Positions 5,419 through 51,896 of a stretch of DNA of 64,000 nucleotides are shown piece by piece. Under the pieces are notes generated by a model. That model searched no databases, was not told the DNA's origin, and saw only the letters and a program-made list of their open reading frames with translations. Each line of letters opens with the position of its first letter. Within the stretch, counting starts at the first letter, position 1. Source of the stretch: Ostreococcus lucimarinus (lineage: Eukaryota); the NCBI GenBank assembly GCA_000092065.1, contig CP000600.1; one strand, given 5' to 3'. Both the position numbers and the translations under genes were made by a program.

Positions 5419-5713
5419 CGACGCCTCGTCTCGCGCGCCGGCCGCGCGTCGTCGCAACACGTCCGTCTATCGCGGTCGAGTCGCCCATCGTTCGCGCCAT
5501 CAGTCAGTCCGGTGTTCGCGCCTCTTTCGCGCCTCTTTCGCGCGCTCGCGTCGGCGCACCTCGAGCGCCTTGAACGCGCCGACGCGCGCCGCGTTCGCGC
5601 GCCGTCGCGCGTCGCGTTCGTCGACCGTCTGTCGTCGTCGTCCGTGCATGACGACACGACGCGACGACGAGTGACGCCACAGCGACGCGCGTCGACGCCG
5701 CGGCGCGCGCGAT

Positions 5714-5785: not shown

Positions 5786-6097
5786 GCGACGCGCGGCGAA
5801 CGCGACGACGCGAGAGCGTCGACGACGAGGGACGTCGACGACGACGACGACGACGACGGCGCGCGCGCTGAGCGCGCGGACGAGCGACGACGCGGAAGCG
5901 GCGGGGGTGATCGATCCGTATCGTCACGCGCAGGGCGCGTGCGAGGTGAGACCGAAGCGAGCGCGAGCGACGCGATCGAGGGGAGGAGGCGCGACGCGAC
6001 GCGACGCGACGGGCGACTGACGACGCGAGCGGTGCTCGTGAATGGATAGGTGGACATAACGCTGCAGACGACGACGACGGAGAACGGCGCGGTGAAG

Positions 6098-6599: not shown

Positions 6600-7414
6600 C
6601 TACGCGCCACCGAGACTCAAGATTTCTCGCGCCAGCGCTTTGCTCGACGTCGTCGTGAGCTGCTCGACGAGCGATCGTTTCGCCTCGCCGTTCCATAGAT
6701 TGCCGCGGCGCTTCACCATGTCGATGGCGTGCTGGCGAACGCGGTCGTCATCGCACGCCAACGCGTACCGAGTCACCCACGCGGTTCCGGTTTGCGCGAA
6801 ACGCTCGCTCGGCGCGGCGAGTAGATTGCTCTCGCACGCGTCGACGATGGACACGCCAAAGTCTTCGTCGACGAATGTTTGATCCTTCCAAAACGACGCA
6901 AACGCCACGATTCCGCACCGACGGTGCCACAGCGACGCGCCTTTGTCGTGCGCCCACGACAAAATTTTCGGCGCCAACTCGGGATTGTGCTTCCACATCT
7001 TCCGCAAAACCTTCGTCGCTAAAGCGTCCGCCACGGCCCAGTCGCCGACGACGGATTTTCCGCGCAACACGTCGCGTTCGAGACGATCGAGCGTCGCCAC
7101 CGTCGCCAACGCGTTCAACGGTTCGCGTTCGCACAATAAAATCACTCCCGCTTGCTTCGCTTCGCCGTGCGTGTGTCTCAACAGCGCCACGGCGTCGTCC
7201 AACCGCGTCGTCATCGCTCGAGCGTCCTCCGTCTCGCCTCGCGCGCGCTTCCTCGTCGGCTTCGGCGCCACCGCGTCGACGCACGCCCGCGTCTGCGGCG
7301 TCGTGCACCCGTAAAACGGCGTCGACCCTTTCATGTACGCCGTCAATCGCGCTCGGACGCTCGCGCTTCCCCGTCGTCCGAGCGCCTCGCATATCGCCTC
7401 CGCCGTCGCCGTCG
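6600..7414 (-). CDS. DNA alkylation repair enzyme (AlkD-like HEAT-repeat DNA glycosylase family)
   Basis: About 270 aa from MTATTATAEA... Motifs TAYMKGSTPFYGCTTPQTR, LWHRRCGIVAFASF and AQTGTAWVTRYALA parallel the B. cereus AlkD segments ARYMK..FLGIRTP, LWLRRAAILFQL and AIGWVLREYAK. The N-terminal 240 aa of the six-frame ORF are low-complexity read-through and were excluded. Confidence 0.65.
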
Positions 7415-9817: not shown

Positions 9818-9893
9818 ACGCGCGTCGGTGTGCGGCGCATCGGGACGCGCCGCACACCGACGCGCGGCGCGCTCGCGTCGCGACGCGCGCCCG

Positions 9894-11483: not shown

Positions 11484-11765
11484 GCCGCGTCTCGCGTTCT
11501 CCGCGCGTCCGTCTCCGATTCGCGCGCGCGCGTCGCGTCTTGTCACCATCGCCATCGCGCGCGCATCTTTCTCTTTCTCTCTCTCTTTCTCTTTCTCACC
11601 GCACCGTTCACCTCGTCGCGTTTGTCGCGTCGCGTCTCGCCCTCGCCTCGTCTCGAGTCCCTCCTTCGCCGGTTCGCTCGGTTTAAAGCGACGATCGGGC
11701 GCGCGCGATCTTTCGATGCGTGCGCGACACACGTCGCCTCGCGCGCGGCGCGCGCCGTCGCGGCC

Positions 11766-14700
11766 ATGTTCGCGCGCGCGAATCGCGGTCGCGAGACGGT
11801 CGACGTCGACGCGGGCGCGCCGACGTCGACGCGCGACGTCGGCGCGCGCGACGACGCGCGCGATGGCGCCGACGACGACGCTGATGACGACGACGTCGAT
11901 GACGCGTCGACGATGGGCGCGCTGAACGCGCGAACGCTGGCGACGCTCGCGCGAACGGGATCGCGACCGACGTCGCCGAGCGCGCGCGAACGACGCGCGG
12001 GAACGGCGACGGAGTCGAGGGCGAGCGAGACGCTGGAGATTCCAACGCGAGAGGTGGATTACGGACGCGGCGGCGCGGGAAGGACGGGATTGAAACCGGG
12101 AGACGTCGTGGCGCTCGTGACGCCGGAGGAGGGATACCCGTACGCGTGCGTGAGCGAAATCGACGAGGCGCGAGATGGAGAGCGACGGTATCGATACGCG
12201 ATCGATGCGGGAGGGAAGGGCGGGAACGCGGCGCTGCGGGAACGCGCGGAGACGCAGTTGGAGGTGTTGCAACATAACGGGTTCGTTGGGTTTCGAAGCG
12301 CGTTCGCGAGAGATCGATTGTTGCAAGCGACGCGACACGCGAGAAATCGGTTGGGGTTCGTGAGCGCGAATTTCGGGACGTGGGAGGAGTGGATTTTGGA
12401 CGAGGAGGAGAAGAGAAAGTTGAACGACGGCGCGTGGACGCGTTGCGAGGTGACGCTGAAGCATCGGCGGTTGGATGCGTATAGACTCAGAGTGACGATG
12501 GTGAGGGTCGGCCGCATCGTCGGTGCGGGCGTAGGAGATGGCGAGCAGGAGGAGTATAAGCTTGGCACGAGCGTGTCGCGACAGAGTACGCCGGGCGGGA
12601 CGACGCGAGCGCTCAGCGCTGTGGATCGCTTTCGATTAACGAGAGAGGGCGAAGCCGCCGAGGGTGGGCGCGGTGCTCCGTCGAGACCTCACGCCATGCA
12701 CGCCATGGGTGGCGCACTCATGAAAGAGTGGGCGGCGGCGCTCGAAAAAGAAGTCGCCGCGCGTCGCGTCATCGAGCAGGAACTCCACGACCTTCACGAG
12801 AGCGACGACAAGCTTAGGGAGTGGGCGCTCACGGAGCTCAACCGCCTACGACAGTTTGCGCAATCAGAAGTCGATTCATTAGCGGCCGAGGTTGAAGAAC
12901 GTAACAAAAAGATGGTCGATCTTAAGCAGCAGCGGCGTGCGCTGGAACTTCGAGCGAAGATGCTCGAAAGCCTCGACGAAGAGCGATTAAATTCCATCGT
13001 CGCTTCGTTTCGTGGGATGCAGCGCGGGACCCTGTTGCGACGGGCTTTCTCACACTGGCGCCGGGAGAGTGGTTCCATGGGCGTGATGCACAACAAGTCG
13101 ATTGAAAATGCGTTTGCGAGGTACCAAGCGAAAGACTACAAGAAAAATCTTTTGAAGAGGGCATTGGAAGTGTGGCGGCGCGAAGCGTCAAAGGAGAAGC
13201 GCGCTCGACGAGTGTACAGCTCCGTGCTCAATCGATATTGCCACGTCGCCTTCAGGACCTGGGCAAGCGAGATGCGCAGTAGCAAACTTCGACGTGAGAT
13301 CGCAGAGCGTATTGCACCCAGCCGCCGGATCGGTGTTCACCTGAACAACGCTCTGACGATCGGTTTCCAAATGCGCGGCGCGTTGAAGCAGCATCAGTTT
13401 CGCCGTTGCGTCGTAGCACACGCGCAAAAGATTACGGGCGTGCGCGTTGATCTCGTCGAAGCAGCTTTCGATTGCGGTGAAGAAATGGAAACTGCGGCTA
13501 CATATGCGCTCAGCGACTCGCTCAGCGATCCGCTCGGCTCAATAAACCTCGCCCGGGAAGCCGTTTTGAGACACGTGTCTGGAGACGACGTTGCCTCTGG
13601 CGCCGTTGTGCACGCGTTCGATCAAGGTATCGCCGTAGCGTCGAGAATGATTCAGGTCCGACAATCGTATATATGGATGAACGCAGACACCGTCGAAGAA
13701 GCTGCGGCTCTAACTGTGGCGTACGACCTCGGCGAAAGCTCTGACAACGCGTCAAGTCAAAATCGAGCCATGGCGCGCGGCAAGCTCATCGTCGATGTCT
13801 CGAAGCTACCACCGAGAATTTCTCGCTTAATCTTAGGTGCTTTCTACCGCGGTAATTTCGTACGCGACTACGCCGACTCGAGAATGTCGAATATCGACGA
13901 GAAAGACGCTTTCTGCGCTGGTTTAGAGGCGGGACTGTGTCAATACAAGCGACGTGAGTTTACTTCGCAGGCGAGATCGCCCGAGGAACTTCGACTGGTC
14001 GCCACTGCTTTCGATGGAGGTATCGCGTATGCGTGCTTGTCCTCGACTTCGAACTCGTACACTAAGGTGCAGATGGTTTTAGATTCGGTGGAAGATGAAA
14101 ATCAGCGAAGTGTGAGCTGGATGCGAGAAACACTCATGACGACGGTTGAAGTCGGCGCCGGCAACGTCGCTTCGACGAATACCGAGTTCCTCTTGCACAA
14201 GATTCTCTACCCTCTTCGCACTGATATGATGCGAGCAACACTTCATGCGTGGCGTAAGAAACATCGCGAAAGTAAGGAGGATGAGCTCACGGTGACTCGC
14301 TTCCAGAGGCGAGTCAATCGCCGCTTGGTCAAGGAGGCGTTATTCTCGTGGCGCAACTCGGCGTCGTTGAACAAGAAGCGATTCATGATCCTGCGACGCG
14401 TCGGTCTGAGGATTAAAAATGCATCCATGGCCAAATATTTCGATACATGGTCTGCAAACGTTGACAAACTCAGCGCTGATCGCGTAAGATTGACTCGTTT
14501 TAAGACGCGTTTGACGCATCGACTTCTCGCTGCAGCGTTTGCGGCCTGGGCTGAAGTCTCATCCAAGCGCGATGATCGCCTCGAAAAGATGGCAAACGTG
14601 TTGAACAAGCGCATGCGGCGATTTGAACTCTCTAAAGCTTTCGCGGGATGGGCCGACAAGGCTTTTACCGCGATTTCAAATCGTGAAAAGGCGAACAAGT

Positions 14701-15764
14701 TCATCGCCCGGTATCGCATGAGATTGCTCACGCGAACCCTCTACGGGTGGCACGAAAACGCTCAAAAGTCGAAGTCAAACCGAAAGAAGGTGCAAAAAGT
14801 GATATCGCGCTCGCAAAATCGTCTCGCGGCATCGGCATTTTACAAATGGAGAGAGTTAGTCACTTCCAAGTCGCGTCAATTACTGCTGCTACGACGTTTC
14901 GTCGATCGAATGCGCAACGGCGTAAAGGCGTCGGCGTTTGACAAGTGGTTCGAAGTGACGCAAAACGAAAAGCGTAAACGTGCCGTCATCACAAAAGTTT
15001 TCTCGCGTATCAAGAACGAGCAGATGGCGCACGCGTTCGGGCGCTGGCGCGAGTTCGCCGCGGAGTCGTACGACGCCAAGGTGAACCTACGCAAAATCGT
15101 CAGCCGCATGCTGCGCTTGCGTCTTTCACAAAGTTTCACGCTATGGAACGAAAATGTGGTTGAATTGCGACGCCAGCGCGCCGTTCTTGCTCGATTCGTC
15201 GGTCGCATGCGCAATCGATGCGTCACGGCCTGCTTTTACGCCTGGGTCGAGGCTCTCGAAGAGCGAAAACGCGCTTCGAAACAAGACGCGTACAGAGACA
15301 GACTCGTGGCAAACGTCCTGTGGCGCACGAACCGCTCGACGCTTCGGGCGGCGATGCACCAGTGGCGAATGGTGGTTGAGGAACGCGAGACGCATCGCGA
15401 GCTGATCCGACGCAATTTGCGTTCCAAACGCGTGGCACTGAACTTCTTCATGACTTGGTATTGGGACGCCTTTGATGGCGATATTCAATCCACCGTCGCG
15501 GACATGTTTGGTCAAACTCGTTCGTATATGAACGAAGCGTTCGATGATTTCGATGAAGGTTCCGCACAGGCCGCGCTCAACTTTGTGGGTTATTACGACG
15601 ACGACAAAGATATCGTGATCGACTCTCCGCCGCCGCCAACCTGGGAAGGCGACGCGGCTGGTATCCACGACGACGACGACGACGACGATGACGACGACAG
15701 ACTCTTCCACACGCCCGGGAAAGTCGGCCGTCGAGCCGACGATCAGGACGACTTTACGTATTAG
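11766..15764 (+). CDS. Sfi1-like centrin-binding repeat protein
   Basis: 1332-aa ORF. The C-terminal ~700 aa consist of about 20 spaced repeats of the Sfi1 type (A/L..[FLM]..W[RKAEN], e.g. ALFSWRN, AFAAWAE, AFAGWAD, LYGWHE, AFYKWRE, AFDKWFE, AFGRWRE, FTLWNE, FYAWVE) every ~30-35 residues. Acidic C-terminus. Confidence 0.5.
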   Translation: MFARANRGRETVDVDAGAPTSTRDVGARDDARDGADDDADDDDVDDASTMGALNARTLATLARTGSRPTSPSARERRAGTATESRASETLEIPTREVDYGRGGAGRTGLKPGDVVALVTPEEGYPYACVSEIDEARDGERRYRYAIDAGGKGGNAALRERAETQLEVLQHNGFVGFRSAFARDRLLQATRHARNRLGFVSANFGTWEEWILDEEEKRKLNDGAWTRCEVTLKHRRLDAYRLRVTMVRVGRIVGAGVGDGEQEEYKLGTSVSRQSTPGGTTRALSAVDRFRLTREGEAAEGGRGAPSRPHAMHAMGGALMKEWAAALEKEVAARRVIEQELHDLHESDDKLREWALTELNRLRQFAQSEVDSLAAEVEERNKKMVDLKQQRRALELRAKMLESLDEERLNSIVASFRGMQRGTLLRRAFSHWRRESGSMGVMHNKSIENAFARYQAKDYKKNLLKRALEVWRREASKEKRARRVYSSVLNRYCHVAFRTWASEMRSSKLRREIAERIAPSRRIGVHLNNALTIGFQMRGALKQHQFRRCVVAHAQKITGVRVDLVEAAFDCGEEMETAATYALSDSLSDPLGSINLAREAVLRHVSGDDVASGAVVHAFDQGIAVASRMIQVRQSYIWMNADTVEEAAALTVAYDLGESSDNASSQNRAMARGKLIVDVSKLPPRISRLILGAFYRGNFVRDYADSRMSNIDEKDAFCAGLEAGLCQYKRREFTSQARSPEELRLVATAFDGGIAYACLSSTSNSYTKVQMVLDSVEDENQRSVSWMRETLMTTVEVGAGNVASTNTEFLLHKILYPLRTDMMRATLHAWRKKHRESKEDELTVTRFQRRVNRRLVKEALFSWRNSASLNKKRFMILRRVGLRIKNASMAKYFDTWSANVDKLSADRVRLTRFKTRLTHRLLAAAFAAWAEVSSKRDDRLEKMANVLNKRMRRFELSKAFAGWADKAFTAISNREKANKFIARYRMRLLTRTLYGWHENAQKSKSNRKKVQKVISRSQNRLAASAFYKWRELVTSKSRQLLLLRRFVDRMRNGVKASAFDKWFEVTQNEKRKRAVITKVFSRIKNEQMAHAFGRWREFAAESYDAKVNLRKIVSRMLRLRLSQSFTLWNENVVELRRQRAVLARFVGRMRNRCVTACFYAWVEALEERKRASKQDAYRDRLVANVLWRTNRSTLRAAMHQWRMVVEERETHRELIRRNLRSKRVALNFFMTWYWDAFDGDIQSTVADMFGQTRSYMNEAFDDFDEGSAQAALNFVGYYDDDKDIVIDSPPPPTWEGDAAGIHDDDDDDDDDDRLFHTPGKVGRRADDQDDFTY

Positions 15765-15797: not shown

Positions 15798-16026
15798 TCG
15801 TCTAAAAAAGTAACTCGCGACGTCGCCTCGTCGAGCGAGGCGCGTGACCTCCTCCCCGACCGATCCCTTAACGATAAAAAATAATAATCCAAGAGGGTTT
15901 TGATCCCCCGACCTTCTCCGCGTTCGCGGTGACGCGCCACACTCGAGCGCGCGCGCCGGAGTCTGGGCGTTCGCCGATGTAAAGGAGACGCGCTTCCACT
16001 GCGCCATCGGATCGAGATAGCGCTTT

Positions 16027-17148: not shown

Positions 17149-18827
17149 CTATTTGACGTAGCCGTCGACCTCGGAGACCGGCAGCGCCGGAGAGTTCGGG
17201 CAGTGTTTCTTTACGATGCGAAGTAAATCGATGAGCACCAGTTCGCGTTTCTTTTTCCAAATCTTTTTGCCATAATGCGCGTCACCGTACATGAACAGCT
17301 CGATTTGAACTGAAAGATGGTCGACATCGATCTTCTTGAGCACGCAAAGCGGTGGCTTGTACGACGCGTGCACGTCGGGATGGTTCGTCAAGAAGGTCGT
17401 GATTTCCTCCGTCAGCGCCGGGATGCCTTCGTAATCAGGAATCGCTATGCGAAGCTGCGGTCCGACGAACTCGTTCGGTTCTCGAGAGGTATTGATGACG
17501 TTGGCGCCGAGAAAATAACCGTTCGGTATGGTGGTGACTTTGCCATCCTTGGGGATGAGTCTGGTTTGATACCAACCGATCTCGTCCACTTTATAATTGC
17601 TGACGTCTTTTTCCTTTGAATCTCGATACTTGCCGCCGCCGCCGGTGAGATAAATCTTTTCGCCAACCTTGAACGGGCGCATCACGGCGAGCACCAAGCC
17701 TCCGATGAGGTTACTTATGAAATCTTTCGCCGCCAAACCGAAAGCCAAACCTCCGAGGCCACCGAAAGAGAAGAGAACTTGGGCTGGAATGCCGAACGCG
17801 GCGAGCGTGAGCATGAGCGTGGCGACGACGACGAACGCGCTCGTGAGACGCGTGATGACGAGTTGTAGCGATGCGTCGTATCGTATCGACGGGAAAAATC
17901 TACCGAGTAATCTCGGTCCGTAGTTTTGAATCACCATCACGACCAAAATTCCCGTCGCGAACGTGTACGATCCTTTATCGAAGCCGAGCTTTATGTTATC
18001 CGGAATGTCCCATTCCGTGGATAACTGATCGATCATATCGCAACCGACGTCGAAGGCGTAGCTCAACACGAAGAGCGCTTGAATGAGCTGCATCGGTTGC
18101 CTGAACCAGTCCAGAAACGACCCTCGAAACGTTTTCGGCGTTCGAGAAGGGTTGAGCGCGTTCTTCGCGCGCTCCGCCGCCTCGAACAATTTTTCGCGTC
18201 CTCGACGGATGCACCAGTTCCACGCCACTAGCACCCACACGTCTTCGATGTGCCAATCCTCTTGCGTCTTCGCCTCGACGCGTCCCATGAAATCGCCCAC
18301 CGTCTGCAGGCTCGTCCGCATGGCGTCCGTCGTCGTCTTCCGCACCCTTCCGCGCAGCGCGTCAAACTCATCCAGCGCCCTCATCGCGCCCGCGCGCTTC
18401 CCCACCACCGTCGACGTCTTCACCCGATCCCCGGTTCCCGCGTTCGCCGCTCGCGGCGTCGCGAGCGCGCCCGTCGACGCCGCGAGCGCGAGCGCCGCCA
18501 ACAGCGCCGCGCGCCCCCCCCCCGGCGCCCTCCTCGCGCCGTCCGCGCGCGTCGTCGCGCCGTCCCATCGCGTCGCCGTTTCCTCGCGCTTCTCCCCCGT
18601 CGCCCTCGTCGCGCCGTCGTCCCGCGCCGCGCGCGCGCCGTCCATCGCGCCGCCGCCGCGTCGATTCCCAATCGTCGCGCGTCCCGTCGCGTCGTGCGTC
18701 GCGCGTCGTCGCGTCGCCGTCCATCGCGTCGCGAAACTCGCGCGCGCGCGTCGCGAAACGCGCGCGCGTCCCGTCGCCGCCGTCGTCGCCGTCGTCGCCG
18801 CCGTCGCGCGTCGCATCGTCGTCGGCG
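17149..18827 (-). CDS. MscS-like mechanosensitive ion channel (MSL family)
   Basis: Pore-lining TM3 and beta-domain signature FGGLGGLAFGLAAKDFISNLIGGLVLAVMRPFKVGEKI. Several upstream TM helices. A C-terminal cytoplasmic vestibule domain. ATG at 18827-18825 (MRRATAATT...) on the minus strand. Confidence 0.85.
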
Positions 18828-18850: not shown

Positions 18851-19140
18851 CCGACCGACCGGTCTATACGTATGGCACGCAGTGACGTATACATTATACC
18901 ACGCGCGCGCGTCTCTTTCATACCGTTCGAAACGCGTGGTGTATACACGGCGACCGACCGGTCTATACGTACGGCACGCAGTGACGTATACATTATACCA
19001 CGCGCGCGCGTCTCTTTCATACCGTTCGAAACGCGTGGTGTATACACGGCGACCGACCGGTCTATACGTACGGCACGCAGTGACGTATACATTATACCAC
19101 GCGCGCGCGCGCATCGCTTTCATACCGTTCGAAACGCGCT
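18851..19140. repeat. 99-bp tandem repeat, ~2.7 copies, in the MscS/coiled-coil divergent intergenic region
   Basis: Copies start at 18861, 18960 and 19059 (ggtctatacgta[t/c]ggcacgcagtgacgtatacattataccacgcgcgcgcg...). Copies 1 and 2 differ at one position. Copy 3 decays after ~50 nt. Confidence 0.9.
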
Positions 19141-28328: not shown

Positions 28329-28481
28329 GACGCGTCGCGCGCGCGCGCGGGCGCGAAATGCGGCGACGGCGCGACCCGGCGAACGTCGAATCGGCACATC
28401 GCGCCGCGCGCGCCGTCGCCGGGACGCGCCGCTCGCGCCGTGGCGCGCGCGCGCGAGCGCGAACGCGACGCTCGACGCGCG

Positions 28482-29912
28482 ATGACGGACGCCGAGGACG
28501 TCGAACTGCGCGGCGCGGCGGAAATCGCGCGGAAACAGCGCGAGGAGCTGGTGCGCGAATTCGAGTCGCGACGACGTTTGCGCGCGACGCACGCGCCGAC
28601 GCACGATGCGGACGTGCGCGCGATGCTGCGAAAGTACCGCGAGCCGATCACGCTGTTCGGCGAGCGAGAGAGCGAGCGGAGGGATCGATTGCGCGCGCTG
28701 TTGGCGTCGTTGGACGCGCGAGACGGCGGCGAACTCGACGACGGCGCGGGGACGCGAACGGCGACGGATAAATACGGCGCCACGATCGTCGACGAGGGAG
28801 AATATAACGCGCACGCGACGCAGAAGGAGACGTTTTACACCGAAGGCACGGAACGGTTGCTGGAGTGCCGAATAGACATCGCGGAGTGGTCGCTGCCGCG
28901 GGCGGCGAAGCGCGTGGCGACGCAACGCGAGGCGAGAGGTAAGGGAGGGAGAAAAGACGAACGGGCGACGATCGATGCGGTGGTGGCGTCGACGTCGGGG
29001 TTCCAGGCGCAGTGCAGCGAGATCGGCGACGCGTCGCGACCGATCTGTGAGGTGAAGTTTTATAACGGAGGGAGAAACGCGGTGAGCGCGAGTTGGAGCG
29101 GGGAGGCGCGCAAGTGGGCGTGCGACGTAGAGGGAGGAAAATTGACCTCCGAGCTCGTCATTCGAGCGAGTGATCATCGAATCACTGGAATCGACGCGTT
29201 CGACGCGGGCGACGGTCGCGCGCGCATCGTCACCGGGCACGCCGACGGCTCTGCGGCGATTTGGAACGCCGACGGAAGTCGCGCGGCGGAGTTGAAAGGC
29301 CACGCCTCTCGATGCGGGCGCGTGGCGTTTCATCCACACGGGGGAAAGTACGTCGCCACCGCGTCCTTCGACGCCACGTGGCGGCTTTGGAGCGCGGAGA
29401 CCGGGGAAGAGTTGTTGTGTCAAGAGGGCCACGCCAAGGAGGTGTACGACGTCGCGTTCCACCCCGACGGTTCGCTCGCCGCGTCCGTGGGCTTAGACGC
29501 CGTCGGGCGCGTGTGGGATCTGCGCATCGGCAAATCCATCGCCGTCTTACGCGGTCACGTCAAGCAAATCCTCTCCGTGGACTTTTCTCCCAACGGCTAC
29601 CACGTCGTCACCGGCGGCGACGACCGCACCGTCAAGTCGTGGGACTTGCGCAAATCCGCCGAGTGCGCGTACACCAACGCCGCGCACTCCGCCCTGGTCT
29701 CTTGCGTCAGGTACGAAAAAACCTCATCCAACGGCGCCTTCTTCACCAGTTCCAGCTACGACGGTTCCGTCGTCGTCTACTCCGCGCGCGACTTCGCCCC
29801 GCACAAGAAGATCGGCGACGGCGCCGCGGGCAAGCTCACCGCCGTCGACGTCGCCGGCGACGCCCTCATCCTCAGCGGTTTCGACCGCACCCTCAAGTAT
29901 TACACCAAGTGA
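28482..29912 (+). CDS. PRPF4: U4/U6 small nuclear ribonucleoprotein PRP4 (WD40)
   Basis: N-terminal PRP3-binding SFM motif (VRAMLRKYREPITLFGE) followed by seven WD40 repeats (GHADGSAAIWN, WRLWS, VGRVWDLR, TVKSWDLR...). Confidence 0.8.
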   Translation: MTDAEDVELRGAAEIARKQREELVREFESRRRLRATHAPTHDADVRAMLRKYREPITLFGERESERRDRLRALLASLDARDGGELDDGAGTRTATDKYGATIVDEGEYNAHATQKETFYTEGTERLLECRIDIAEWSLPRAAKRVATQREARGKGGRKDERATIDAVVASTSGFQAQCSEIGDASRPICEVKFYNGGRNAVSASWSGEARKWACDVEGGKLTSELVIRASDHRITGIDAFDAGDGRARIVTGHADGSAAIWNADGSRAAELKGHASRCGRVAFHPHGGKYVATASFDATWRLWSAETGEELLCQEGHAKEVYDVAFHPDGSLAASVGLDAVGRVWDLRIGKSIAVLRGHVKQILSVDFSPNGYHVVTGGDDRTVKSWDLRKSAECAYTNAAHSALVSCVRYEKTSSNGAFFTSSSYDGSVVVYSARDFAPHKKIGDGAAGKLTAVDVAGDALILSGFDRTLKYYTK

Positions 29913-31396: not shown

Positions 31397-31788
31397 ATGT
31401 CCGCCGCCGAGGAAGACGCCGCCGTGCGCGAGCCCTTGGACCTGATCCGCCTCGCCCTCGACGAGAAGGTTTACGTCAAGCTGCGCGGCGACAGAGAGGC
31501 CAGAGGGCGCTTACACGTGCGTCGTCGCCGCGAATCGACGCGACGCGATCGCGAATCGAACGAGCGATCGCTCGACCGACGACTGACGACTCTTCGCCGT
31601 GGTTTCGCGCGCAGGCGTACGATCAACACTTGAACATGATCCTCGGTGACGTGGAGGAAGTGATCACGAGCACGGAGACGGACGAAGAGACGTTCGAGGA
31701 GTTTACGAAGACGACGAAGAGAAGTGTGCCCTTCTTGTTCATCAGAGGCGACGCGGTGACGCTGGTGTCGCCGCCGCTGCGGAGTTAG
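31397..31788 (+). CDS. LSM3: U6 snRNA-associated Sm-like protein LSm3, 2 exons
   Basis: Exons 31397..31516 and 31615..31788. The spliced product [29 protein letters not shown]|[19 protein letters not shown]...[20 protein letters not shown] is collinear with LSm3. The 98-nt intron has GTGCGT ... CGACTGACG ... CGCGCAG. Confidence 0.88.
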
Positions 31789-33590: not shown

Positions 33591-33789
33591 CGCGAGGAGG
33601 GCGTCGAAGGTCGCGTCGTGACGCGTCGTGACGCGGAACGCCGGAACGTCGCGCGCCGGAATCCCGAACACGCGAACACGCGAACACGCGCGTCGCCCAT
33701 AACATTGACGCTAGACAGTCGATCGGGGTGGGGTCGATCGTGTTTTCAGTTTTCCCGGTATGTAGCGTTCACCGAACGTTAAGTACGAA

Positions 33790-33950
33790 GGTCCTGTGGC
33801 CCAATGGATAAGGCGCCGGTCTACGGTTGTAGTCACGGTACTTTACCGTGATTTAGAGCCATGAGTGCCGAAACGCACACACAACACTCCGTCGAACGAG
33901 CCGTTCGAGTCGCAAACCGGAGATTCCAGGTTCGATCCCTGGCAGGATCA
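33790..33950 (+). tRNA. trnR-ACG: tRNA-Arg (anticodon ACG) with 88-nt intron at the canonical 37/38 position
   Basis: Acceptor stem GGTCCTG/CAGGATC with one G-U pair. D-arm GCCCAATGGATAAGGC, Arg-type. Anticodon stem CCGGT/ACCGG flanking loop CTACGG^A, anticodon ACG at 33823-33825. Intron 33827..33914. T-arm CCAGGTTCGATCCCTGG. Discriminator A. Confidence 0.7.
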
Positions 33951-36988: not shown

Positions 36989-37088
36989 CGCGCGCGCCGT
37001 CGCCGTTCGCGCGCGTCCCGTTCGCGCGCCGCGTCGCCGAGTCGCGACGTCGAGGGCGCGGCGCCGCACTCGTCGACGCGTCGCGACG

Positions 37089-40000
37089 ATGGCGGCGTCC
37101 CGCGCCGCGGTCGTCGTCCGCGACGGCCTGCACGACCTCCTCGGGTACACCGCGAGCGCGCTCGAGGCGTTCGTGCTGGACAAGGCGCGAGAGAGCGGCG
37201 GCGACGCGCGCGCGCTCGAGGCGGCGCTGATCGAGTGCGGATGTCCCGACGACGAAAAGACGCGCGCGTTCGCGCGCGCGGTGTGCGCGAGCGCGTCCGA
37301 CGACGCGAAAGGGAGCGCGGCGGACGCGCGCGGAGGCGCCGCGGCGTCGACGGGCGTCGCGAGGGCGGCGACGAGGGATGATTGGACGGCGACGCGCGCG
37401 GCGGCGACGTACGAGTTGTTGGCGGAGGAGAGCGAGAGCGAGCGCGAACGCGAACGCGAGGAGGACGACAGAGCGAAGCGAAGGGCGACGAAACGAGCGA
37501 AAAAGATGAGGAAGAAACGAGGGAAGGGCGAGGGGGCGAGCGAGAGCGAGGAGGACGCGGAGGCGGTGGAGACGCGTCGGCGAGCGCTCGCGGGGGAACG
37601 CGAAGACGAATCGTACGAGGCGCCGTCGGCGTCGGAGGAAGACGAAGAGACGAGGAAGGCGCGAGAGATGGAGGAAGATTTGCGAGAGCGCGATGAGTTT
37701 GAACAACGCCTGCGGGCGAAGGATGAGGCGAAGACGAAAAAGTTGAGCGGCGATCGAGGACCGACGGAGGCGGAGCGCGCGGAAGCCGAGCGTCGAGGCG
37801 CGCATTTGGAGACGGATGAACAGCGCACAGATTTAGTGCCCGAACTCAGAAAGGTATCGCGGCAAGAGTACTTGAAGAAACGCGAGCTTCAAAAGCTCGA
37901 GGAGCTGAAAGAATCGATCAAAGAGACGGAGTACTTTTACGAAGGCCAAGACGTGACGGAGGAGCAGCGCAAGGATTTAGAAAAGAGGAAGAAGGTTTAC
38001 GAGCTCGCGATGGAGCAAATCAATAGCATTAACGACGCCTTAGAGGAGCGTTACTCTATACCCACGGCGTACGACGATCCGAACAAGCCGAAGTCCACGA
38101 ACGAACGGTTCGCGGTGGCGAGACAACGATACAAGGAGCCCGACCCCGAGGACGACGCGAATCCTTTCAAGGATCAAGACCAGTGGGAGGCGCATCAAGT
38201 CAAACAAGCGCAGGCGCAGTTCGGAGCGAAGAATAAGAAATCTGAAGTCAAGGAGTACGACTTGGTGTACGACGATCAAATCAAGTTCATCAAGGATGAA
38301 ATCATGGCGGGCGACGGCGTGTCGAGCGGAAGCGAGAGCGAGAGCGAGAGCGAGAGCGAGAGCGAGAGCGAGATGGACGAAGAGAAACGCACCAAGCTCG
38401 CTTTGGCGGGAAAACTCGGGAAAAGGGCCAAGATAGAAGCCGATCGCAAGTCGCTTCCGATTTTTCCATACCGCGAGTCTCTCATCAAGGCGGTGGAGGA
38501 TCACCAAGTCGTCGTCATCGTCGGCGAGACGGGTTCGGGCAAGACGACGCAAATTCCGCAGTACATGTGGGAAGCTGGTTTCGGTGGCAAGACGCAAAAA
38601 ATCGGTTGTACGCAGCCGAGACGAGTGGCGGCGATGTCCGTCGCGTCGCGCGTCGCGGAGGAAGCGGGCGTAAAGCTCGGTCACGAGGTTGGCTACACCA
38701 TTCGTTTCGAGGACTGCACCAACGACAAGACGCGAGTCAAGTACATGACGGACGGGATGCTCTTGCGCGAATTCTTGGGTGAGCCAGACTTGTCGTCGTA
38801 TGCGGTGATGATGGTGGACGAGGCGCACGAGCGCACGCTGCACACCGACGTTCTTTTTGGCCTCGTCAAGGATATCGCCAGATTCCGACCGGAGATCAAG
38901 CTTCTCATCTCCTCCGCCACGCTCGACGCGGAAAAGTTTAGCGAGTACTTTGATTTCGCACCGATTTTCAGAATTCCCGGTCGTCGATTTCCGGTGGATA
39001 TTCTCTACACACAGCAACCCGAGGCAGATTACGTGGACGCCACCGTGGTGACGGTGTTACAAATTCATCTCACCCAACCCGAGGGCGACATTTTAGTCTT
39101 TTGCACCGGTCAAGAGGAGATTGAAAGTTGTGAGGAACTGTTGAAGACGCGCATCCACGAGATGGAGAAGAAACCTCCCGAGCTTATCATCGCGCCCATT
39201 TACGCATCGCTGCCAAGCGACATGCAGGCGAAGATTTTCGAGGACACGCCCAAGGGATCGCGAAAAGTCGTCCTGGCGACGAACATCGCCGAGACGTCGC
39301 TCACGATTGACGGCATCAAATACGTGATTGATCCTGGGTTTTGCAAGCAAAAGAGTTATAACCCACGCACGGGGATGGAGTCACTCGTCGTCACCCCCAC
39401 ATCGCAGGCGAGCGCGTTGCAGCGCGCCGGTCGCGCCGGTCGTACATCGGCGGGAAAGTGTTTCCGTCTATACACGGCGTGGAGTTTCCAAAACGAACTC
39501 GACCCGAACACCGTACCCGAAATTCAGCGCACGAACCTCGGGAACGTGGTGTTGATGTTGAAATCACTCGGAATCAACGATTTGATGCACTTCGACTTCA
39601 TGGATCCGCCCCCGGCCGAGACGTTACTTCGAGCGCTCGAACAACTGTACGCCCTCGGCGCGTTGAACGATAGAGGCGAGCTCACGAAACTCGGGCGCAA
39701 GATGGCTGAGTTCCCTCTGGACCCGATGCTTTCGAAGACGCTCTGCGCGAGTGACAAGTACAAAGTAAGCGATGAAGTGATGACGATTTGCTGCATGCTG
39801 TCGTGCGGAAACACGGTATTTTATCGTCCCAAAGACAAGCTACAGCTCGCCGATCACGCGCACAAATCCTTTCACATCGGCAACGTCGGCGATCACATCG
39901 CGTTATTAAACGTATACAACTCATGGCGTGACGCCGACTTTTCTGTCACGTGGTGTTACGAAAACTTTGTGCAGCAGCGGACGATGAAAACGGCGCGAGA

Positions 40001-40394
40001 TATTCGAGAACAGCTCGAAAAGCTCCTCGAGCGCGTCGAAATCGAGCCGTCGTCGAACACAAACGACCTCGACGGCATTAAAAAGTGCATCACGAGCGGA
40101 TTCTTCTACCACACCGCCAAACTGCAAAAGAACGGCAGCTATAGAACGGTGAAGAATCCGCAAACCGTGGCCATCCATCCGTCGAGCGGGCTCGCGAAGG
40201 AGCTTCCGCGCTGGGTCGTGTACTTTGAGCTCGTGTACACGTCCAAGGAATACATGCGGCAAGTAATTGAAATCAAGCCCGAGTGGCTCGTGGAGATCGC
40301 GCCGCACTATTACAAACGGAAAGAAATCGAAGGAGAAACCATCAAGACCGGCAAGGCGGCCGCGGGGAAGAAATCAGACGTCGTCTTGGCGTGA
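37089..40394 (+). CDS. DHX16: DEAH-box pre-mRNA splicing factor ATP-dependent RNA helicase DHX16/PRP2
   Basis: 1101 aa. N-terminal [18 protein letters not shown] as in the DHX16 N-terminus. Helicase motifs [14 protein letters not shown] (MVDEAHERT), SAT and [10 protein letters not shown]2 and OB-fold domains. In-frame (SE)n tract from (GAGAGC)n. Confidence 0.85.
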
Positions 40395-42845: not shown

Positions 42846-44412
42846 TCACGCCTCGCGTCGCACATTCACGTGACCTTCACGAATCAATTCATCCAAATTC
42901 AACGTTTCGACGTCAGACGTCGCGTAAAGTACCTTGGCGGTGCGATTACGCTCGTTGAGCGAAATCACCTCCGCGCGATACCACAAGTTATCGTCCGGCC
43001 AAAACAACTGTGGAGGCGGCGCGCGCGCGCGATCACGTCAGTCTTCGCATCCTCGTTCATCTTCTCACGCGCATCGCGTCTTGTCGACGCGTGACGCGAC
43101 GCGTGACGAGACAAATCGCCTCGAGTGGGCGTCGGGCTCCCTCGTCTCGAGGGTTCCGAAAACGACGGTTCGCGCTCGCACCTCAATTTGCGCGTTCTTC
43201 AGCGTCGTCAGCGCTTGATCGGGGTCTAGGATGAACCCAGGGGATGGTTTCTTAAAACCTTGTGCGTCCATCTGCGCATCGAACCGAGGCGTCGATCGCG
43301 TCGTCGTCAGTCGTCGTGGTCGTGGTCGTCGTCATCGTCGCGAAGGAGCGAATCGCGTCACGCGCGCATTCGTCACGAAATCGCCGCCAGCGCGCTTCGT
43401 TCGCACGCACCGGGTCCACTTTATGCTTCTTCACCTTGGAACTATTTCCCTTGACGTCCGCGAGCGCGGTTTTCGCGCCCTTCCCCGTCGCGTCGCGCCC
43501 GTTCGCCTGCGCACCGCCATTCTGACGCGCGCCCGCGCTCGTCGGTTTCTCTTCGCGTCCGTGCGCCGCGCTGAGCGTTTCGTACACCGTGGGCACGGCG
43601 TTGATCTGCGCGAAAAGTGCATCACTGATCGTCGTCGTCGTCCCGCGTCGCCGTCAGTCGCGCGCGTCGTCGTCGAACATCGCGTCGCTTCGTCACCCGC
43701 GAGGGTCGCATTCGCGTCGTTTCAGCGGCATCGGCATCGACGACGACAACGCGCTCGACGCTCGACGCACCGTTTCTTGGCGTCAAACTTGGCGCCGTAA
43801 TAAAACGCCACCGCCATCAACCACGCATCGCTGTGCACGGCGACCAACGCGAGCCAATCCTTACGCTGCGTCGTCGAAAGCACCGCGCATCGCGACTTCG
43901 TCAGTCGGTCGTTCGCGCGCGCGGTCGAATCGAATCAAATCGCATCGTCGCGCCGCATTCGCGCCGCGTTCGCGCCGCGCGCCGCGCGGATTCGCGCGCA
44001 TCGAATTTACCTGCATCCCATCGCGCGCGAAATTAATCCCGAGCGCCGGTTCCGGGAGCTCGGGCGGGACTTCTTCGGCGGGTAATTGCACGTCCCACGT
44101 CCCGTCGGGATTGCCGTACAGGCACAAGTTTTCCTTGTCCGGGTCGCACTGCGCGTAGAACGCCTCGACGTCTGCGTGGTTCGACGCGGGTTAATCGTCT
44201 GCGTCGTCGTTCGCGTTCGCGTCGCGCGCGCTTCGTCGCGCGCTTCGTCGCGCGACCGCGATCGCGTCCCGGTCGCGTCCCGGTCGCGCGACGTGCGAAT
44301 CCGTCGATCGGCGCGCGCGCGCGTTCGTACCGCGCGTCAGGGCCTTGACGAGGCCGTCGCGTCGACGGGAAAAGTTTGCGTGGACCTCATCGACCGTGCG
44401 CGGGGCCTCCAT
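42846..44412 (-). CDS. Alfin-like (PAL-domain) chromatin protein, 6 exons, with Tudor-like C-terminal domain instead of PHD finger
   Basis: Minus-strand exons 44412..44331, 44171..44011, 43865..43771, 43624..43411, 43271..43182 and 43007..42846. Exons 1-4 give [28 protein letters not shown]|[53 protein letters not shown]|[32 protein letters not shown]|[17 protein letters not shown]..., collinear with plant Alfin1-like N-termini. Every intron has GT(G/A)CG/GTAAAT donors, an ACTGAC branch and a YAG acceptor. Exons 5-6 encode ...[41 protein letters not shown], a Tudor-like barrel. No PHD finger is present anywhere downstream. Confidence 0.6.
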
Positions 44413-47693: not shown

Positions 47694-48310
47694 ATGCCGC
47701 GCGAGGTGCGCGAGGGCGACATCGCGCTCGCGCGCGGCGCCGCGCATCGGGCGTTCACGCTCGTCGTCGTGCGCGACTACGAGGGCGGTCGAGTGCTGCT
47801 GGGCGAAAAACTGCGCGGATTCGGCGCCGGGTGCGTCCGCGACCGAGACGAGGCGAAACGCGCGATGACTGACGAATGCGCGACGGGCGTAGGTATTACA
47901 ACGGATTCGGGGGGAAGGTGGAGCGCGGGGAGACGGTGGAGGCGGCGGCGGCGCGAGAGCTGACGGAGGAGGCGAACGTCGAGGCGACGAACATGACGCG
48001 GCGAGGGGCGCTGCGATTCGTGTTCGACGATAAACCGCTCGAACCGTGGTTGGTGCACGTGTTTCACTGCTCGCGGTACGACGGGGAGATCGCGGCGAGC
48101 GATGAGATGCGACCGGAGTGGTTCGATTTGGACGACGTGCCGTTTGAAAATATGTGGGCGGACGATCCGTACTGGTGGCCGTTGTTTTTGGAGGAGAAGG
48201 AGTTCGTGGGGACGTTTACGTTCACGAACACGACGACGCTCGTGGATTATTGGATTCGGGAGACGAAGGATCTGATGCTCGACGTCGAGGCGATGACGGC
48301 GAACGAATGA
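47694..48310 (+). CDS. NUDT1: NUDIX hydrolase, MTH1/NUDT1-like oxidised-dNTP pyrophosphatase, 2 exons
   Basis: Exons 47694..47830 and 47893..48310. The spliced product ...FTLVVVRDYEGGRVLLGEKLRGFGAG|YYNGFGGKVERGETVEAAAARELTEEANV... is collinear with human MTH1 ([43 protein letters not shown]). C-terminal DEMRPEWFDLDDVPFENMWADDPYWWPLFL also matches. The 62-nt intron has GTGCGT ... GACTGACG ... GTAG. Confidence 0.85.
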
Positions 48311-49236: not shown

Positions 49237-49481
49237 CGGGTACGCCGCGCGCGCGTCTGCGCTCGGCGGCGGCGACGCCGCGCGCGCGGTGAGTCCGAGC
49301 GTCCGCGAGTCCGCGCTCGCGCGCCGCGCGTCGACGCACCGTCGAGGAGTCGCGCGCGATGCGCGCGCAGGGACGAGGACGACGCCGCGTCGCCGTCGCG
49401 TCGCGTCGTCGGCGCCGACCCACGCATGGTCGTCTCGCGCGCGCGAGTGCGCTTCGCGACGCCATCGCGCGACGCGCGGCC

Positions 49482-49765
49482 ATGGCCAAGGGCGCGACCA
49501 AGGCGGGCGCGATCCTCGTCAAGCTCGTCAGCGCCGCGCGCACGGGATTCTTCTACGTCAAGCGCAAGAACCCGAAGAAGACGCCGAGGAAGCTCGAGTT
49601 CGTCAAGTACGACCCCAGGGTGCGACGACGACGCGACGGCGTCGCGACGCGAACGCGAGAGCCGTGTAGCGCGGTGACTGACGACGACGCCGCGAAACGC
49701 GGGACGTCGCGCGCGCGCAGGTTCGACGGCACGTGCTGTTCACGGAGACGAAGATTAACAAGTGA
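49482..49765 (+). CDS. RPL33: organellar (bacterial-type) ribosomal protein bL33, 2 exons
   Basis: Exons 49482..49619 and 49721..49765. The spliced product [46 protein letters not shown]|[14 protein letters not shown] (60 aa) is collinear with bL33 (..KL.S.A.TGFFY..KN....KLE.KKYDPVVRQHV...E.KIK). The 101-nt intron has GTGCGA ... GTGACTGACG ... CGCGCAG. Confidence 0.8.
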
Positions 49766-49899: not shown

Positions 49900-50415
49900 T
49901 CACGCGAATTTGACGCCGTCGTCGCCGAAAATCGCGCACCCGGGCGGACGCGCGTCTCGCCGGCGCTCCGCGACGGCGCGCGCGCGCTCGCGATCCGTCC
50001 CGAGCGCCGACGCGAGCTCGTCCATCGTGCACACCTTCCCGCTCAATCCGTACTCTTCGACGCGCGTCGTCAGCGCGTCGTCCAACGCGGCGAGATCGCG
50101 CGCGTCGACGACGCGCGCGCGCGTCGACGCGTCGTCCAACCACCTCGCGTCTCCCGACGCCACCAGCGCGTCGATCACCGCGCGTCGCGCGTCCAGCGGC
50201 AGCGCGCGCGCGAGCGTCGCGTTCACGAACGCGTCCTCGACGTCCGCGCGCACGATGGGGCTCGCGCGGCGCTTCACCGCGCTGTTTTCGCGCGTCCCGA
50301 CGGCCGTCGCGTCGGCGTCAGTCGCCTCGTGCGTCGCGATTCGCGCCTCGATTCGCGCGTCGCGCGCGCGCACCGCTTCAAGAGTTCGCCCCACATCGCG
50401 CGCTGCGCGCGCCAC
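49900..50415 (-). CDS. hypothetical protein
   Basis: 171-aa ORF with non-repetitive composition (..VEEYGLSGKVCTMDELASALG..). No family recognised. It could be spurious given the GC-rich background. Confidence 0.3.
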   Translation of the reverse strand: MARAARDVGRTLEAVRARDARIEARIATHEATDADATAVGTRENSAVKRRASPIVRADVEDAFVNATLARALPLDARRAVIDALVASGDARWLDDASTRARVVDARDLAALDDALTTRVEEYGLSGKVCTMDELASALGTDRERARAVAERRRDARPPGCAIFGDDGVKFA

Positions 50416-50509: not shown

Positions 50510-51896
50510 ATGCCCGCGACGGCGACGCGCGTCGCGGACGCGCGCGCACGGGCGAACGCCACCGTCGCGCGCCGCGTCCGCGCGCCGCGTGCGGCGCGCG
50601 GGGCGACGCGCGCGCGCGCGACGCGCGAACTGCTCGACCTCGCCGCGCTCGTCGACGTCGTCCCGAGCGACCTCGCGCTGAGCGACGCCGAGGAGGCGCT
50701 GGGGAAGTGCGCGTTCGCGGCGCTGAGCGCGTCGAGCGCGGCGTTCGCGGGCAAGGTGCGGACGCGCGCGACGACGACGCGCGAGCGACGAGGGACGGGA
50801 CGCGCGACGACGGCGCGCGAGGGTTATGCGCGCGAGACGACGAGACGACGAGACGACGACGCGCGATGAAGACGCGAGCGACGCGCGACGACGACGGGAA
50901 AAGACGATAAAAAATACGCGAGACTGACGGGAACGAACGCGCGGCGATGGGCGCGCGCAGGCGATTTTTACGGATGAGAAACGCGCGGGACGGGGCGAAC
51001 AGATTGGAATGTACGTCGGGAACGCGTCGCTGTTCGGACTGCTCGCGGCGCGGTGGATCGAGAGCGGACACTTTCCGCTGAGTAATATGTACGAGTCGCT
51101 GTTGTTTCTGGCGTGGGGGATCACGGCGGTGCACCTGGTGGTGACGGAGCGCGACGGGTTCTCGGAGAGCGCGATTCCGGGGGCGCTCGCGGGACCGACG
51201 GCGGCGCTCACGGTGGCCGGGGCGACGTTAGCGCTGCCGGCGGAGCTGCAGCGCGCCACCGCGCTCGTGCCGGCGTTGAAGAGTAATTGGTTGATGATGC
51301 ACGTGAGCGTGATGATGCTGAGTTACGCCACGTTACTCGTCGGTTCGTTGTCGTGCGTGTCGTATTTAGTCGTCGACGCGTCTCAGGATTGGGCCGCGGC
51401 GAAGGGGGCGCTGGAGAAGCTCGATAAGATGGTGTCCAACGACGGCGAGCGCGTGAGAAATAGGCCAAAAGTGAGCGTCGCCGCCGACGGCGAAACCGTG
51501 GCGGTGGAGACGATGAACGCGAGCGAGGATTACGGCGGCGAGCTCGCCATCGAGGCGACGCGCGACGGCGAACGCATCCTCACCGAGATGGACAACTTGG
51601 CCTACCGTTGCTTGGGCGCCGGTTTCACTTTGCTCACCGCGGGTTTGGTTTCCGGCGCGGTGTGGGCCAACGAAGCCTGGGGTTCGTACTGGTCCTGGGA
51701 TCCGAAGGAGACGTGGGCGCTCATCACCTGGCTCGTGTACGCCACGTATTTGCACTCGCGTCTCGTCGCCGGTTGGAGTAAAAAGGACTCGTGCGCCGTC
51801 GGTGCCGCGGGCTTTTTGGTCGTTTGGGTGTGCTACGTCGGCGTCAACCTCTGGGGCGTCGGCTTACACTCGTACGGTTGGTTCGCCAACAAGTAA
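50510..51896 (+). CDS. ccsA: cytochrome c-type biogenesis protein CcsA (System II heme-handling WWD protein), nuclear-encoded, 2 exons
   Basis: Exon 2 (50961..51896) is collinear with Chlamydomonas plastid CcsA: ARWIESGHFPLSNMYESLLFLAW, ATALVPALKSNWLMMHVSVMMLSYATLLVGSL, and the WWD heme-binding box GAVWANEAWGSYWSWDPKETWALITWLVYATYLHSR, with conserved His residues. Exon 1 (50510..50755) encodes an Ala/Arg/Thr-rich presequence (MPATATRVADARARANATVARR...). The 205-nt intron has GTGCGG ... GAGACTGACG ... CGCGCAG. The frame is open and continuous across the junction (..AFAGK|AIFTDEKRAGRGEQIGMYVGN..). Confidence 0.75.

Follow-up and report, generated by a model that had tools for sequence, protein, structure and literature searches.

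Near-invariant splice signals in the coding introns of a 64-kb stretch of the Ostreococcus lucimarinus genome

The introns of Ostreococcus lucimarinus are the subject of a section entitled 'The Peculiar Case of Ostreococcus', which Irimia and Roy (2008, PLoS Genet 4:e1000148; PMC2483917) devoted to this genome. Among the introns outside chromosome 2 that were confirmed by expressed sequence tags, 87.2% contain the hexamer ACTGAC and 66.5% the extended box GACTGACG, and the 5′ boundary follows the atypical consensus GTGCGTG (4.8 bits). The introns of chromosome 2 are without these signals, and a search rule built on them fails in the low-G + C half of that chromosome (PMC2483917). Here, a stretch of 64,000 nucleotides (nt) of nuclear DNA from O. 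lucimarinus CCE9901, in the following called the window, was analyzed on both strands (128,000 nt in total). A first-pass annotation of this window had noticed a uniform intron architecture consisting of a GTGCG donor, an ACTGAC branch point and a YAG acceptor, of which the intron of the LSm3 gene is an example. Among the 18 coding introns that could be placed, ACTGAC is present in 94% (17/18), GACTGACG in 78% and a GTGCG donor in 83%, which is no substantive difference from the published O. lucimarinus set. The earlier observation, its comparison with yeast and the annotation rule derived from it are a correct rediscovery, already published for this genome in 2008. What the window adds to that work is the location of the acceptor at the first AG that follows the box by 10 nt or more, the lack of a polypyrimidine tract and four specific exceptions.

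The same signals are known from related algae. The canonical introns of Micromonas were described by Verhelst et al. (2013; PMC3879977) as AG|GTGCGT together with NCTGAC, and GACTGACG was cited there as the Ostreococcus box. Micromonas commoda and M. pusilla thus share the donor and the branch motif with the window and likewise have few introns per gene, whereas their branch motif is located 43-52 bp upstream of the acceptor (PMC3879977) and the putative branch A in the window 19-39 nt from it. For the introners of Micromonas, GacUGAC was given as the branch point by Simmons et al. (2015; PMC4540971). The introns of Ostreococcus chromosome 2 (BOC1) are served by the same spliceosome in the same organism, but are 40-65 nt long and AT-rich, have weak donors and contain any one branch-like hexamer in only 4.6% of cases (PMC2483917, PMC2367439); none of the 18 introns of the window is of that type. 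In a search of five Mamiellales genomes, every U1 candidate that was found has the standard pairing sequence (2022 preprint, bioRxiv 10.1101/2022.06.08.495308), and therefore no compensatory U1 change exists for the atypical donor. The co-evolution of U1 with GTGCGT has thus already been examined with a negative answer, and no new biological question is opened by the window.

Hemiascomycete yeasts (GTATGT...TACTAAC...YAG) are likewise intron-poor, with a near-invariant box and a strong atypical 5′ site, and U1 is unchanged in yeasts and Mamiellales alike (bioRxiv 10.1101/2022.06.08.495308). The yeast-like rigidity claimed for the window could be confirmed, with ACTGAC in 17/18 introns compared to ACTAAC in 94% of the introns of S. 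cerevisiae (PMC2483917). The further statement that such rigidity is unusual for a photosynthetic eukaryote holds against plants and Chlamydomonas, but not more widely, as all Mamiellophyceae have the signals in common (PMC3879977) and ACTAAC reaches 100% in the red alga Cyanidioschyzon (PMC2483917). The box ACTGAC differs from the yeast ACTAAC by the G at the fourth position, which would form a G.U wobble with U2, and the donor is GTGCGT instead of GTATGT. Furthermore, the introns of the window are G + C-rich and poor in T, unlike those of yeast. About a quarter of the genes carry introns here; in yeast, it is about 5% of the genes. An intron-poor photosynthetic eukaryote has converged on splice signals of yeast-like rigidity, but with GTGCGT as the donor and GACTGACG as the branch box.

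The intron of the LSm3 gene (31517-31614, + strand) has a length of 98 nt and lies in phase 0 between the codons for ...RGRLH and AYDQH.... It begins with the 5′ splice site GTGCGT (31517-31522), in line with the donors of the whole set, contains the branch-point box GACTGACG at 31581-31588 and ends with the 3′ splice site CAG (31612-31614), which is the first AG downstream of the box. The A at 31586 is the likely branch nucleotide; it precedes the last intron base by 28 nt, a distance typical of the intron set. After splicing, LSm3 comprises 97 amino acids (aa) and is identical to XP_001422469.1, the transcript-derived MMETSP product P0087 is 1 aa apart, and the Pfam LSM domain is continuous over the junction. 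In a contig of a divergent Ostreococcus clade (L006, LSm3 at 3496-3756), the gene is intronless and its DNA reads TTACAC|GCGTACGAC through the junction site.

In total, the 18 coding introns are distributed over 12 genes, with two introns in PsbO, five in an Alfin-like gene, two in msrA-1 and one in each of nine further genes, namely RabGGTase alpha, a plastid-type GNAT, LSm3, NUDT1, bL33, Vps25, a CcsA-like gene, an unnamed gene for a 506-aa protein and GMD. With 12 intron-bearing genes among about 45 protein genes (~27%), approximately 73% of the genes are without introns, so that the earlier figure of more than 75% was only approximate. The reported length range of 62-311 nt was confirmed, the extremes being the NUDT1 intron (62 nt) and PsbO intron 1 (311 nt), and all four intron strings quoted as examples (LSm3, bL33, GMD and ccsA) are present in the sequence.

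The donor starts with GTGCG in 15/18 introns, followed by T (7), A (5), C (2) or G (1) at the sixth position; the deviating donors are GTACGA in Alfin intron 1, GTAAAT in Alfin intron 2 and GTGAGA in GNAT. The last exon base is G in 16/18 cases, and the 5′ site pattern is (A/C)(A)G|GTGCG(T/A). ACTGAC occurs in 17/18 introns, the sole exception being GATTAAC in Alfin intron 1. A G precedes the branch hexamer in 18/18 introns and follows it in 15/18, and the extended box GACTGACG is complete in 14/18 (78%). The distance from the branch A to the 3′ end of the intron ranges from 19 to 39 nt. All acceptors are YAG (14 CAG, 4 TAG) and always the first YAG past the box. Only three AG dinucleotides are located between box and acceptor, at 4-8 nt from the branch A; counted from ~10 nt past the branch A, no other AG precedes the acceptor. 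No polypyrimidine tract was found between box and acceptor in any of the 18 introns, pyrimidines making up 31-62% of that stretch. On the sense strand, the introns contain 12% T and 38% G, have a G + C content of 64-74% and consist of CGCG/GACG/CGAC-type low-complexity sequence. The claim that every intron carries all three signals was therefore slightly overstated: among the 14 introns on which it was based, GTGCG is present in 12 and ACTGAC in 13, with Alfin intron 1 (GTACGA, GATTAAC) and Alfin intron 2 (GTAAAT) as the exceptions, and the signals themselves are real.

As a whole, the window is not enriched in ACTGAC, which occurs 18 times on both strands compared to 18.3 times expected from dinucleotide-preserving shuffles. 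This count, and the fact that four of the introns were found through the motif, could suggest that the uniformity is an artefact of motif-based recognition or of chance clustering in G + C-rich DNA. The hexamers are, however, concentrated in the introns, whose sense strand makes up 2,669 nt of the 128,000 nt scanned but holds 17/18 of them (binomial P ~5e-28). The 14 introns of the first-pass annotation, which were found without the hexamer, alone give P ~2e-22, and for 13 of them the position is set by a spliced product that matches an annotated or transcript-derived protein exactly. Downstream of each of the 18 ACTGAC sites, a YAG follows at 20-45 nt, and 17 of the sites are preceded by a GTGCG at most 400 nt upstream; the composite GTGCG..ACTGAC..YAG was counted 17 times in the window compared to 3.5 +/- 1.7 times in Markov-simulated sequence. 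Furthermore, a motif-blind census was carried out, in which segments with coding-type codon usage but no in-frame ATG at their start were collected. It picks the same genes and no others, returning exactly the downstream exons of the introns plus two short low-scoring segments antisense to real genes, which were treated as spurious. The census replaced a GT-AG scan that likewise ignored the motif and used codon usage as its score, which had yielded 57 clusters and was too noisy to define introns. An origin of the pattern in chance or ascertainment is refuted and has practically no probability left.

Most of the splice junctions are backed by deposited sequences. Seven spliced models are identical to deposited sequences residue for residue, among them five NCBI proteins that belong to O. 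lucimarinus CCE9901 and a record of 549,133 bp, namely PsbO (XP_001422458.1), LSm3, the Alfin-like protein (XP_001422648.1), bL33 (XP_001422473.1) and NUDT1 (XP_001422472.1); the GMD and msrA-1 products match exactly to unnamed transcript-type entries on JGI/Logan/ENA contigs. An exact look-up in the protein collection gave no match for the spliced products of RabGGTase alpha, GNAT, Vps25, ccsA and the unnamed gene, whose deposited models may use other starts or miss the 5′ exon. Excision is directly visible for PsbO introns 1 and 2 and for the GMD intron, where transcript-type contigs (Logan and JGI) with 98-100% identity to the window skip the interval, and indirectly for LSm3, Alfin introns 1-5, NUDT1, bL33 and msrA-1 introns 1 and 2, where the product is exact or 1 aa off. 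For RabGGTase alpha, GNAT, Vps25, ccsA and the unnamed gene, the sequence suggests that the introns are excised from the transcripts as well. Models without an exact deposited match are backed by collinearity with Pfam, PDB, a paralogue or orthologues. Pfam or PDB matches run collinear over the junctions of LSm3, Alfin introns 1-3, NUDIX, bL33, ESCRT-II, GMD and RabGGTase alpha, and an intronless paralogue and intronless orthologues confirm msrA-1 introns 1 and 2, the LSm3 intron and Alfin introns 4 and 5. Together, these data support that the introns are real spliceosomal introns, that the three signals are real and that their earlier interpretation was right.

Regarding the intron class, all 18 introns are GT-YAG. 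The window has a G + C content of 54-71% per 2-kb bin, which together with the 64-74% of the introns places them in the normal high-G + C class of compact nuclear eukaryotic DNA. None of the 18 introns resembles the U12 type, in which an (A/G)TATCCTT donor is combined with the branch box TCCTTAAC at a distance of 10-15 nt from the acceptor, and none shows the combination of 40-65 nt length, AT-richness and absence of a branch motif that marks the outlier-chromosome (BOC1/chromosome 2) type.

For a comparison between species, syntenic contigs of other Ostreococcus clades were gathered via relatives of the DHX16-like gene and SAICAR synthase, and orthologous introns were located solely by protein identity over the junction and GT/GC-AG borders, with a cut-off of 60% for the junction peptide. 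In this way, 32 distinct orthologous introns were obtained, all of which end with YAG and of which 24 have GTGCG and six GTACG donors. ACTGAC is present in 26/32, and the other six have a hexamer with one mismatch at the same place (GCTGAC three times, TCTGAC, ACTAAC and ATTGAC). The remainder of the introns cannot be aligned between orthologues, and the lengths differ. The orthologue of the NUDT1 intron in L005, for instance, comprises 200 nt instead of 62 nt, with GTGCGT and GAGACTGACG, whereas those of the bL33 intron have 118-122 nt and the same signals. Two of the deviating signals of the window are regular in relatives, as the orthologues of Alfin intron 1 in L005 and L007 carry ACTGAC and those of Alfin intron 2 have the donor GTGCGC. 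Among the relatives not identical to the window, L009 is the closest, with 98% identity in SAICAR synthase; its orthologue of the intron in the unnamed gene (7096-7261) has ATTGAC in place of ACTGAC and several indels, with both splice sites unchanged. Overall, the pattern is as expected for functional constraint on the three signals alone.

The position of the GMD intron is kept in all related clades, and other introns are clade-specific. L005 is without Alfin introns 4 and 5, its gene reading through (12162-11698), whereas L007 and L008 keep all five. Among the msrA-1 orthologues, those in L010-L014 have intron 1 as their sole intron and those in L015-L017 have none. Intron 2 of msrA-1 is found only in O. 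lucimarinus, being absent from 7/7 orthologues examined and from the paralogue msrA-2. For the clade-specific introns, above all msrA-1 intron 2, either a recent gain or (repeated) loss in the other clades may be the explanation.

These differences in intron presence between Ostreococcus clades would also be in line with a descent of the shared signals from a mobile 'introner' element instead of independent convergence. Micromonas provides the precedent, with hundreds of introns copied from one sequence. The Micromonas introner families (IE-C/ABC-IE; PMC4540971, PMC3879977, PMC4815162) carry the GACTGACG box together with GYRAGT-type donors and CAG, and some of them are ~64 nt long, similar to the NUDT1 intron with its 62 nt. 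They are repeated, alignable copies, whereas the introns of the window share only their signals and base composition. An all-vs-all BLAST search of the 18 introns yielded many matches above a mononucleotide-shuffle null, but the best of these reaches 41.9 bits compared to null means of 36-43 bits for Markov models of order 1-3, the matches are out of register, and the similarity reflects the CGCG/GACG/CGAC low-complexity composition. Orthologous introns share nothing but the three signals, and the lengths in the window spread from 62 to 311 nt. As no alignable copies beyond the splice signals exist among the 18 introns, an introner origin was rejected and is considered very improbable indeed.

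The introns are in all probability ordinary U2-type GT-AG introns of the 'canonical' class of normal-G + C Mamiellophyceae DNA, whose signals have been driven near a single optimum. According to general splicing knowledge, the branch box would first be bound by SF1/BBP and would then pair with the GUAGUA of the U2 small nuclear RNA (snRNA) through A-U, C-G, U-A, a G.U wobble and C-G, with the branch A bulged. The pairing of ACUGAC with U2 would thus comprise five pairs, including one G.U wobble, around the bulged A. The 3′ splice site would be the first AG reached downstream, which the AG-free zone between box and acceptor fits. The 5′ site would pair imperfectly with the standard 5′ end of U1, with G.U at position +3 and a C/U mismatch at +4. 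Since the U1 pairing sequence is unchanged, the preference for +3G/+4C must arise at another step, for which U6, U5, Prp8 or a protein factor may be considered.

Several points weigh against this assignment of the introns. The branch A of ACTGA-C is assigned by analogy, and the flanking Gs of GACTGACG are not explained by simple pairing with GUAGUA of U2. Such an invariant G before the box and a frequent G after it, both outside the canonical U2 pairing, would also suit a binding site of another intronic factor (e.g., a splicing enhancer protein) with the true branch point elsewhere. This alternative is nevertheless highly unlikely: the box fits the universal CTRAY, no further element of this kind follows between it and the acceptor, it is located at a narrow distance of 19-39 nt and followed by an AG-free zone, the TRAC core with its A is retained in all variants seen in orthologues, and the specialist literature takes it as the branch point. 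At the 5′ site, standard U1 does not account for the C at +4. Three deviating donors and one deviating box are evidently spliced, and the signals are therefore preferred and not obligatory. Furthermore, the census covered coding introns from frame-consistent models. The junction of Vps25 is suggested mainly by the Pfam match and reading-frame logic, and the introns of ccsA and the unnamed gene are predicted from their conserved position in relatives and from reading-frame logic.

The signals are informative enough for almost every intron of normal-G + C DNA to be recognized by the hexamer alone, and ACTGAC followed by YAG 20-40 nt later is an excellent intron flag for the annotation of normal-G + C Mamiellophyceae DNA. 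The usefulness of this rule, which the first-pass annotation had proposed for finding further introns, could be verified, as a scan for ACTGAC gave four additional introns (RabGGTase alpha, GNAT, Vps25 and the unnamed gene), three of which cut off short N-terminal exons. In the window, the rule makes one false positive call (48412, - strand) and misses one intron (Alfin intron 1). A scan for branch boxes with one mismatch in combination with GT(G/A)(C/A)G donors gave many chance matches in the window and no convincing additional coding intron; weak candidates of this kind are located in 5′ regions at 9794-9855, 49257-49339 and 33711-33878 (all - strand).

The sole ACTGAC outside the introns, at 48412 (- strand), is situated within the 3′ end of an open reading frame (ORF). 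From shuffling the codon order in exons and a Markov model of the non-coding DNA, about 9.6 such sites would be expected (rough Poisson P ~7e-4); for the exons alone, one site stands against 6.1 expected (P = 0.026). These counts come from only 64 kb with an approximate gene map. The deficit is suggestive of an avoidance of cryptic branch sites. That ACTGAC, decisive as it is in this genome, is actively purged from all non-intron sequence, including both exon strands and the spacers, and relatedly that some of the consensus introns are recent gains, is a tentative idea and rather doubtful at present. If the purging is true, the presence of the hexamer would by itself almost suffice to identify an intron.

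The features of the individual introns are as follows. PsbO intron 1 (2910-3220, + strand) comprises 311 nt with GTGCGT, GAGACTGACG and CACAG, and PsbO intron 2 (3324-3604, + strand) 281 nt with GTGCGT, TGGACTGACG and AACAG; both are skipped by the transcript contigs L091-L096 (98-100% identical), and the spliced product is XP_001422458.1. The GMD gene, coding for GDP-mannose 4,6-dehydratase, has an intron of 274 nt (62354-62627, + strand) with GTGCGA, GCGACTGACG and GCGCAG. It is skipped exactly by the transcript contigs L089/L090 (100% identical), and positions 1-332 of 332 of Pfam GDP_Man_Dehyd are collinear with the spliced product.

The Alfin-like gene is encoded on the - strand and contains five introns: intron 1 (44172-44330, 159 nt) with GTACGA, GATTAAC instead of ACTGAC and ACGCAG, intron 2 (43866-44010, 145 nt) with GTAAAT, CCGACTGACG and ACGCAG, intron 3 (43625-43770, 146 nt) with GTGCGT, GCGACTGACG and ATCAG, intron 4 (43272-43410, 139 nt) with GTGCGT, ACGACTGACG and GCGCAG, and intron 5 (43008-43181, 174 nt) with GTGCGA, AAGACTGACG and CACAG. 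The five-intron model results in a product of 267 aa that equals XP_001422648.1, and the transcript-derived P0097 is 1 aa apart. Positions 1-126 of the Pfam Alfin domain are collinear with 126 residues, covering the junctions of introns 1-3.

The NUDT1/MTH1-like NUDIX gene has an intron of 62 nt (47831-47892, + strand) with GTGCGT, ATGACTGACG and CGTAG; its product of 184 aa is XP_001422472.1, and the Pfam NUDIX domain spans the junction. In the gene of ribosomal protein bL33, an intron of 101 nt (49620-49720, + strand) with GTGCGA, GTGACTGACG and GCGCAG was found, the product of 60 aa being XP_001422473.1 and positions 2-47 of 47 of Pfam L33 being collinear.

Four introns were identified by the ACTGAC scan. 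The intron of RabGGTase alpha (PPTA; 5467-5559, - strand) has 93 nt with GTGCGC, CGGACTGACT and GATAG. Residues 1-316 of the spliced product, from MHGR onwards, align with residues 1-316 of the rat protein (PDB 4ehm_A), which spans the junction at aa 30, and the downstream exon is without an in-frame ATG. The plastid-type GNAT gene (NSI/GNAT2-like) has an intron of 104 nt (5946-6049, + strand) with GTGAGA, GCGACTGACG and GATAG. The orthologues P0139/P0140 (products of 232-242 aa) align over the junction with ...VDPY..Q..E.D..L, E78 at the junction being invariant, and the downstream exon has no in-frame ATG. The intron of Vps25, a component of ESCRT-II, comprises 92 nt (50282-50373, - strand) with GTGCGC, GCGACTGACG and AACAG. 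Residues 11-133 match the Pfam ESCRT-II domain, which spans the junction at aa 37, and the downstream exon has no ATG. The best candidate for an orthologous intron, in L013/L014, has 84 nt with GTGCGT and ACTGAC; its junction peptide agrees in 12/21 positions, below the cut-off of 60%. The unnamed gene for a 506-aa coiled-coil protein has its predicted intron after codon 10 (59238-59341, - strand; 104 nt) with GTGCGA, AAGACTGACG and ACGCAG. An intron of 101-112 nt with GTGCG and ACTGAC (ATTGAC in L009) is located at the same position in L009-L017, and the downstream exon is without ATG.

The CcsA-like cytochrome c assembly gene has a predicted intron of 205 nt (50756-50960, + strand) with GTGCGG, GAGACTGACG and GCGCAG. 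Its junction is situated outside the Pfam domain, no ATG is present in the downstream exon, and the orthologues in L013, L014 and L017 have an intron of 200-203 nt after the corresponding codon position.

The gene msrA-1 (59437-60535) contains intron 1 (59764-59847, + strand; 84 nt) with GTGCGA, GAGACTGACG and GATAG and intron 2 (60246-60342, + strand; 97 nt) with GTGCGT, CCGACTGACC and CACAG. The acceptor of intron 2 is the first YAG (60342) and not the CGCAG 18 nt downstream. It was chosen because only this acceptor yields ...YHQQYLAKP... as in the tandem paralogue msrA-2 (60676-61431), which is intronless and reads through both intron sites of msrA-1. The spliced product of 262 aa is found exactly on 13 short contigs.

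Apart from the introns, several further observations were made in the window. LSm3 (31397-31788) is located within 12 kb of two other splicing-related genes, coding for PRP4, the U4/U6 WD40 protein (28479-29909), and for a DHX16/Prp2-type helicase (37080-40391). Their clustering is probably a coincidence in a very gene-dense genome. The gene order PRP4-LSm3-DHX16 is kept in the related contigs L001-L006, and the DHX16-like ORF shows 65% identity to an M. pusilla protein and 99% to marine metagenome contigs. The former value and a G + C content of 64% had pointed to Micromonas, an origin that was rejected in view of the exact matches of the spliced models to O. lucimarinus proteins.

Several long genes are located in stretches of markedly lower G + C content (54-60% compared to 65-71% in their neighborhood), at 11.8-15.8, 26.4-28.3, 38-40 and 54-58 kb. 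The 3′ two-thirds of one ORF of 1,380 codons (11622-15764) score poorly under a codon-usage model trained on the window. An Rfam search of the window revealed no snRNA gene and two tRNA genes as full-model matches to RF00005, at 33790-33950 (+ strand; 44.5 bits) and 15885-16013 (- strand; 45 bits), whereas ARAGORN reported no tRNA over the window. Both tRNA genes have insertions in the region of the anticodon loop (93 and 58 unaligned nt), which look like unusually long tRNA introns. Finally, a tandem repeat of 99 nt (18852-19138; 2.9 copies, 96% identity) is relatively AT-rich and contains GTATAC palindromes. It is located just upstream of the coding signal of 17152-18702 (- strand) and before a divergent gene on the + strand that starts at 19399.

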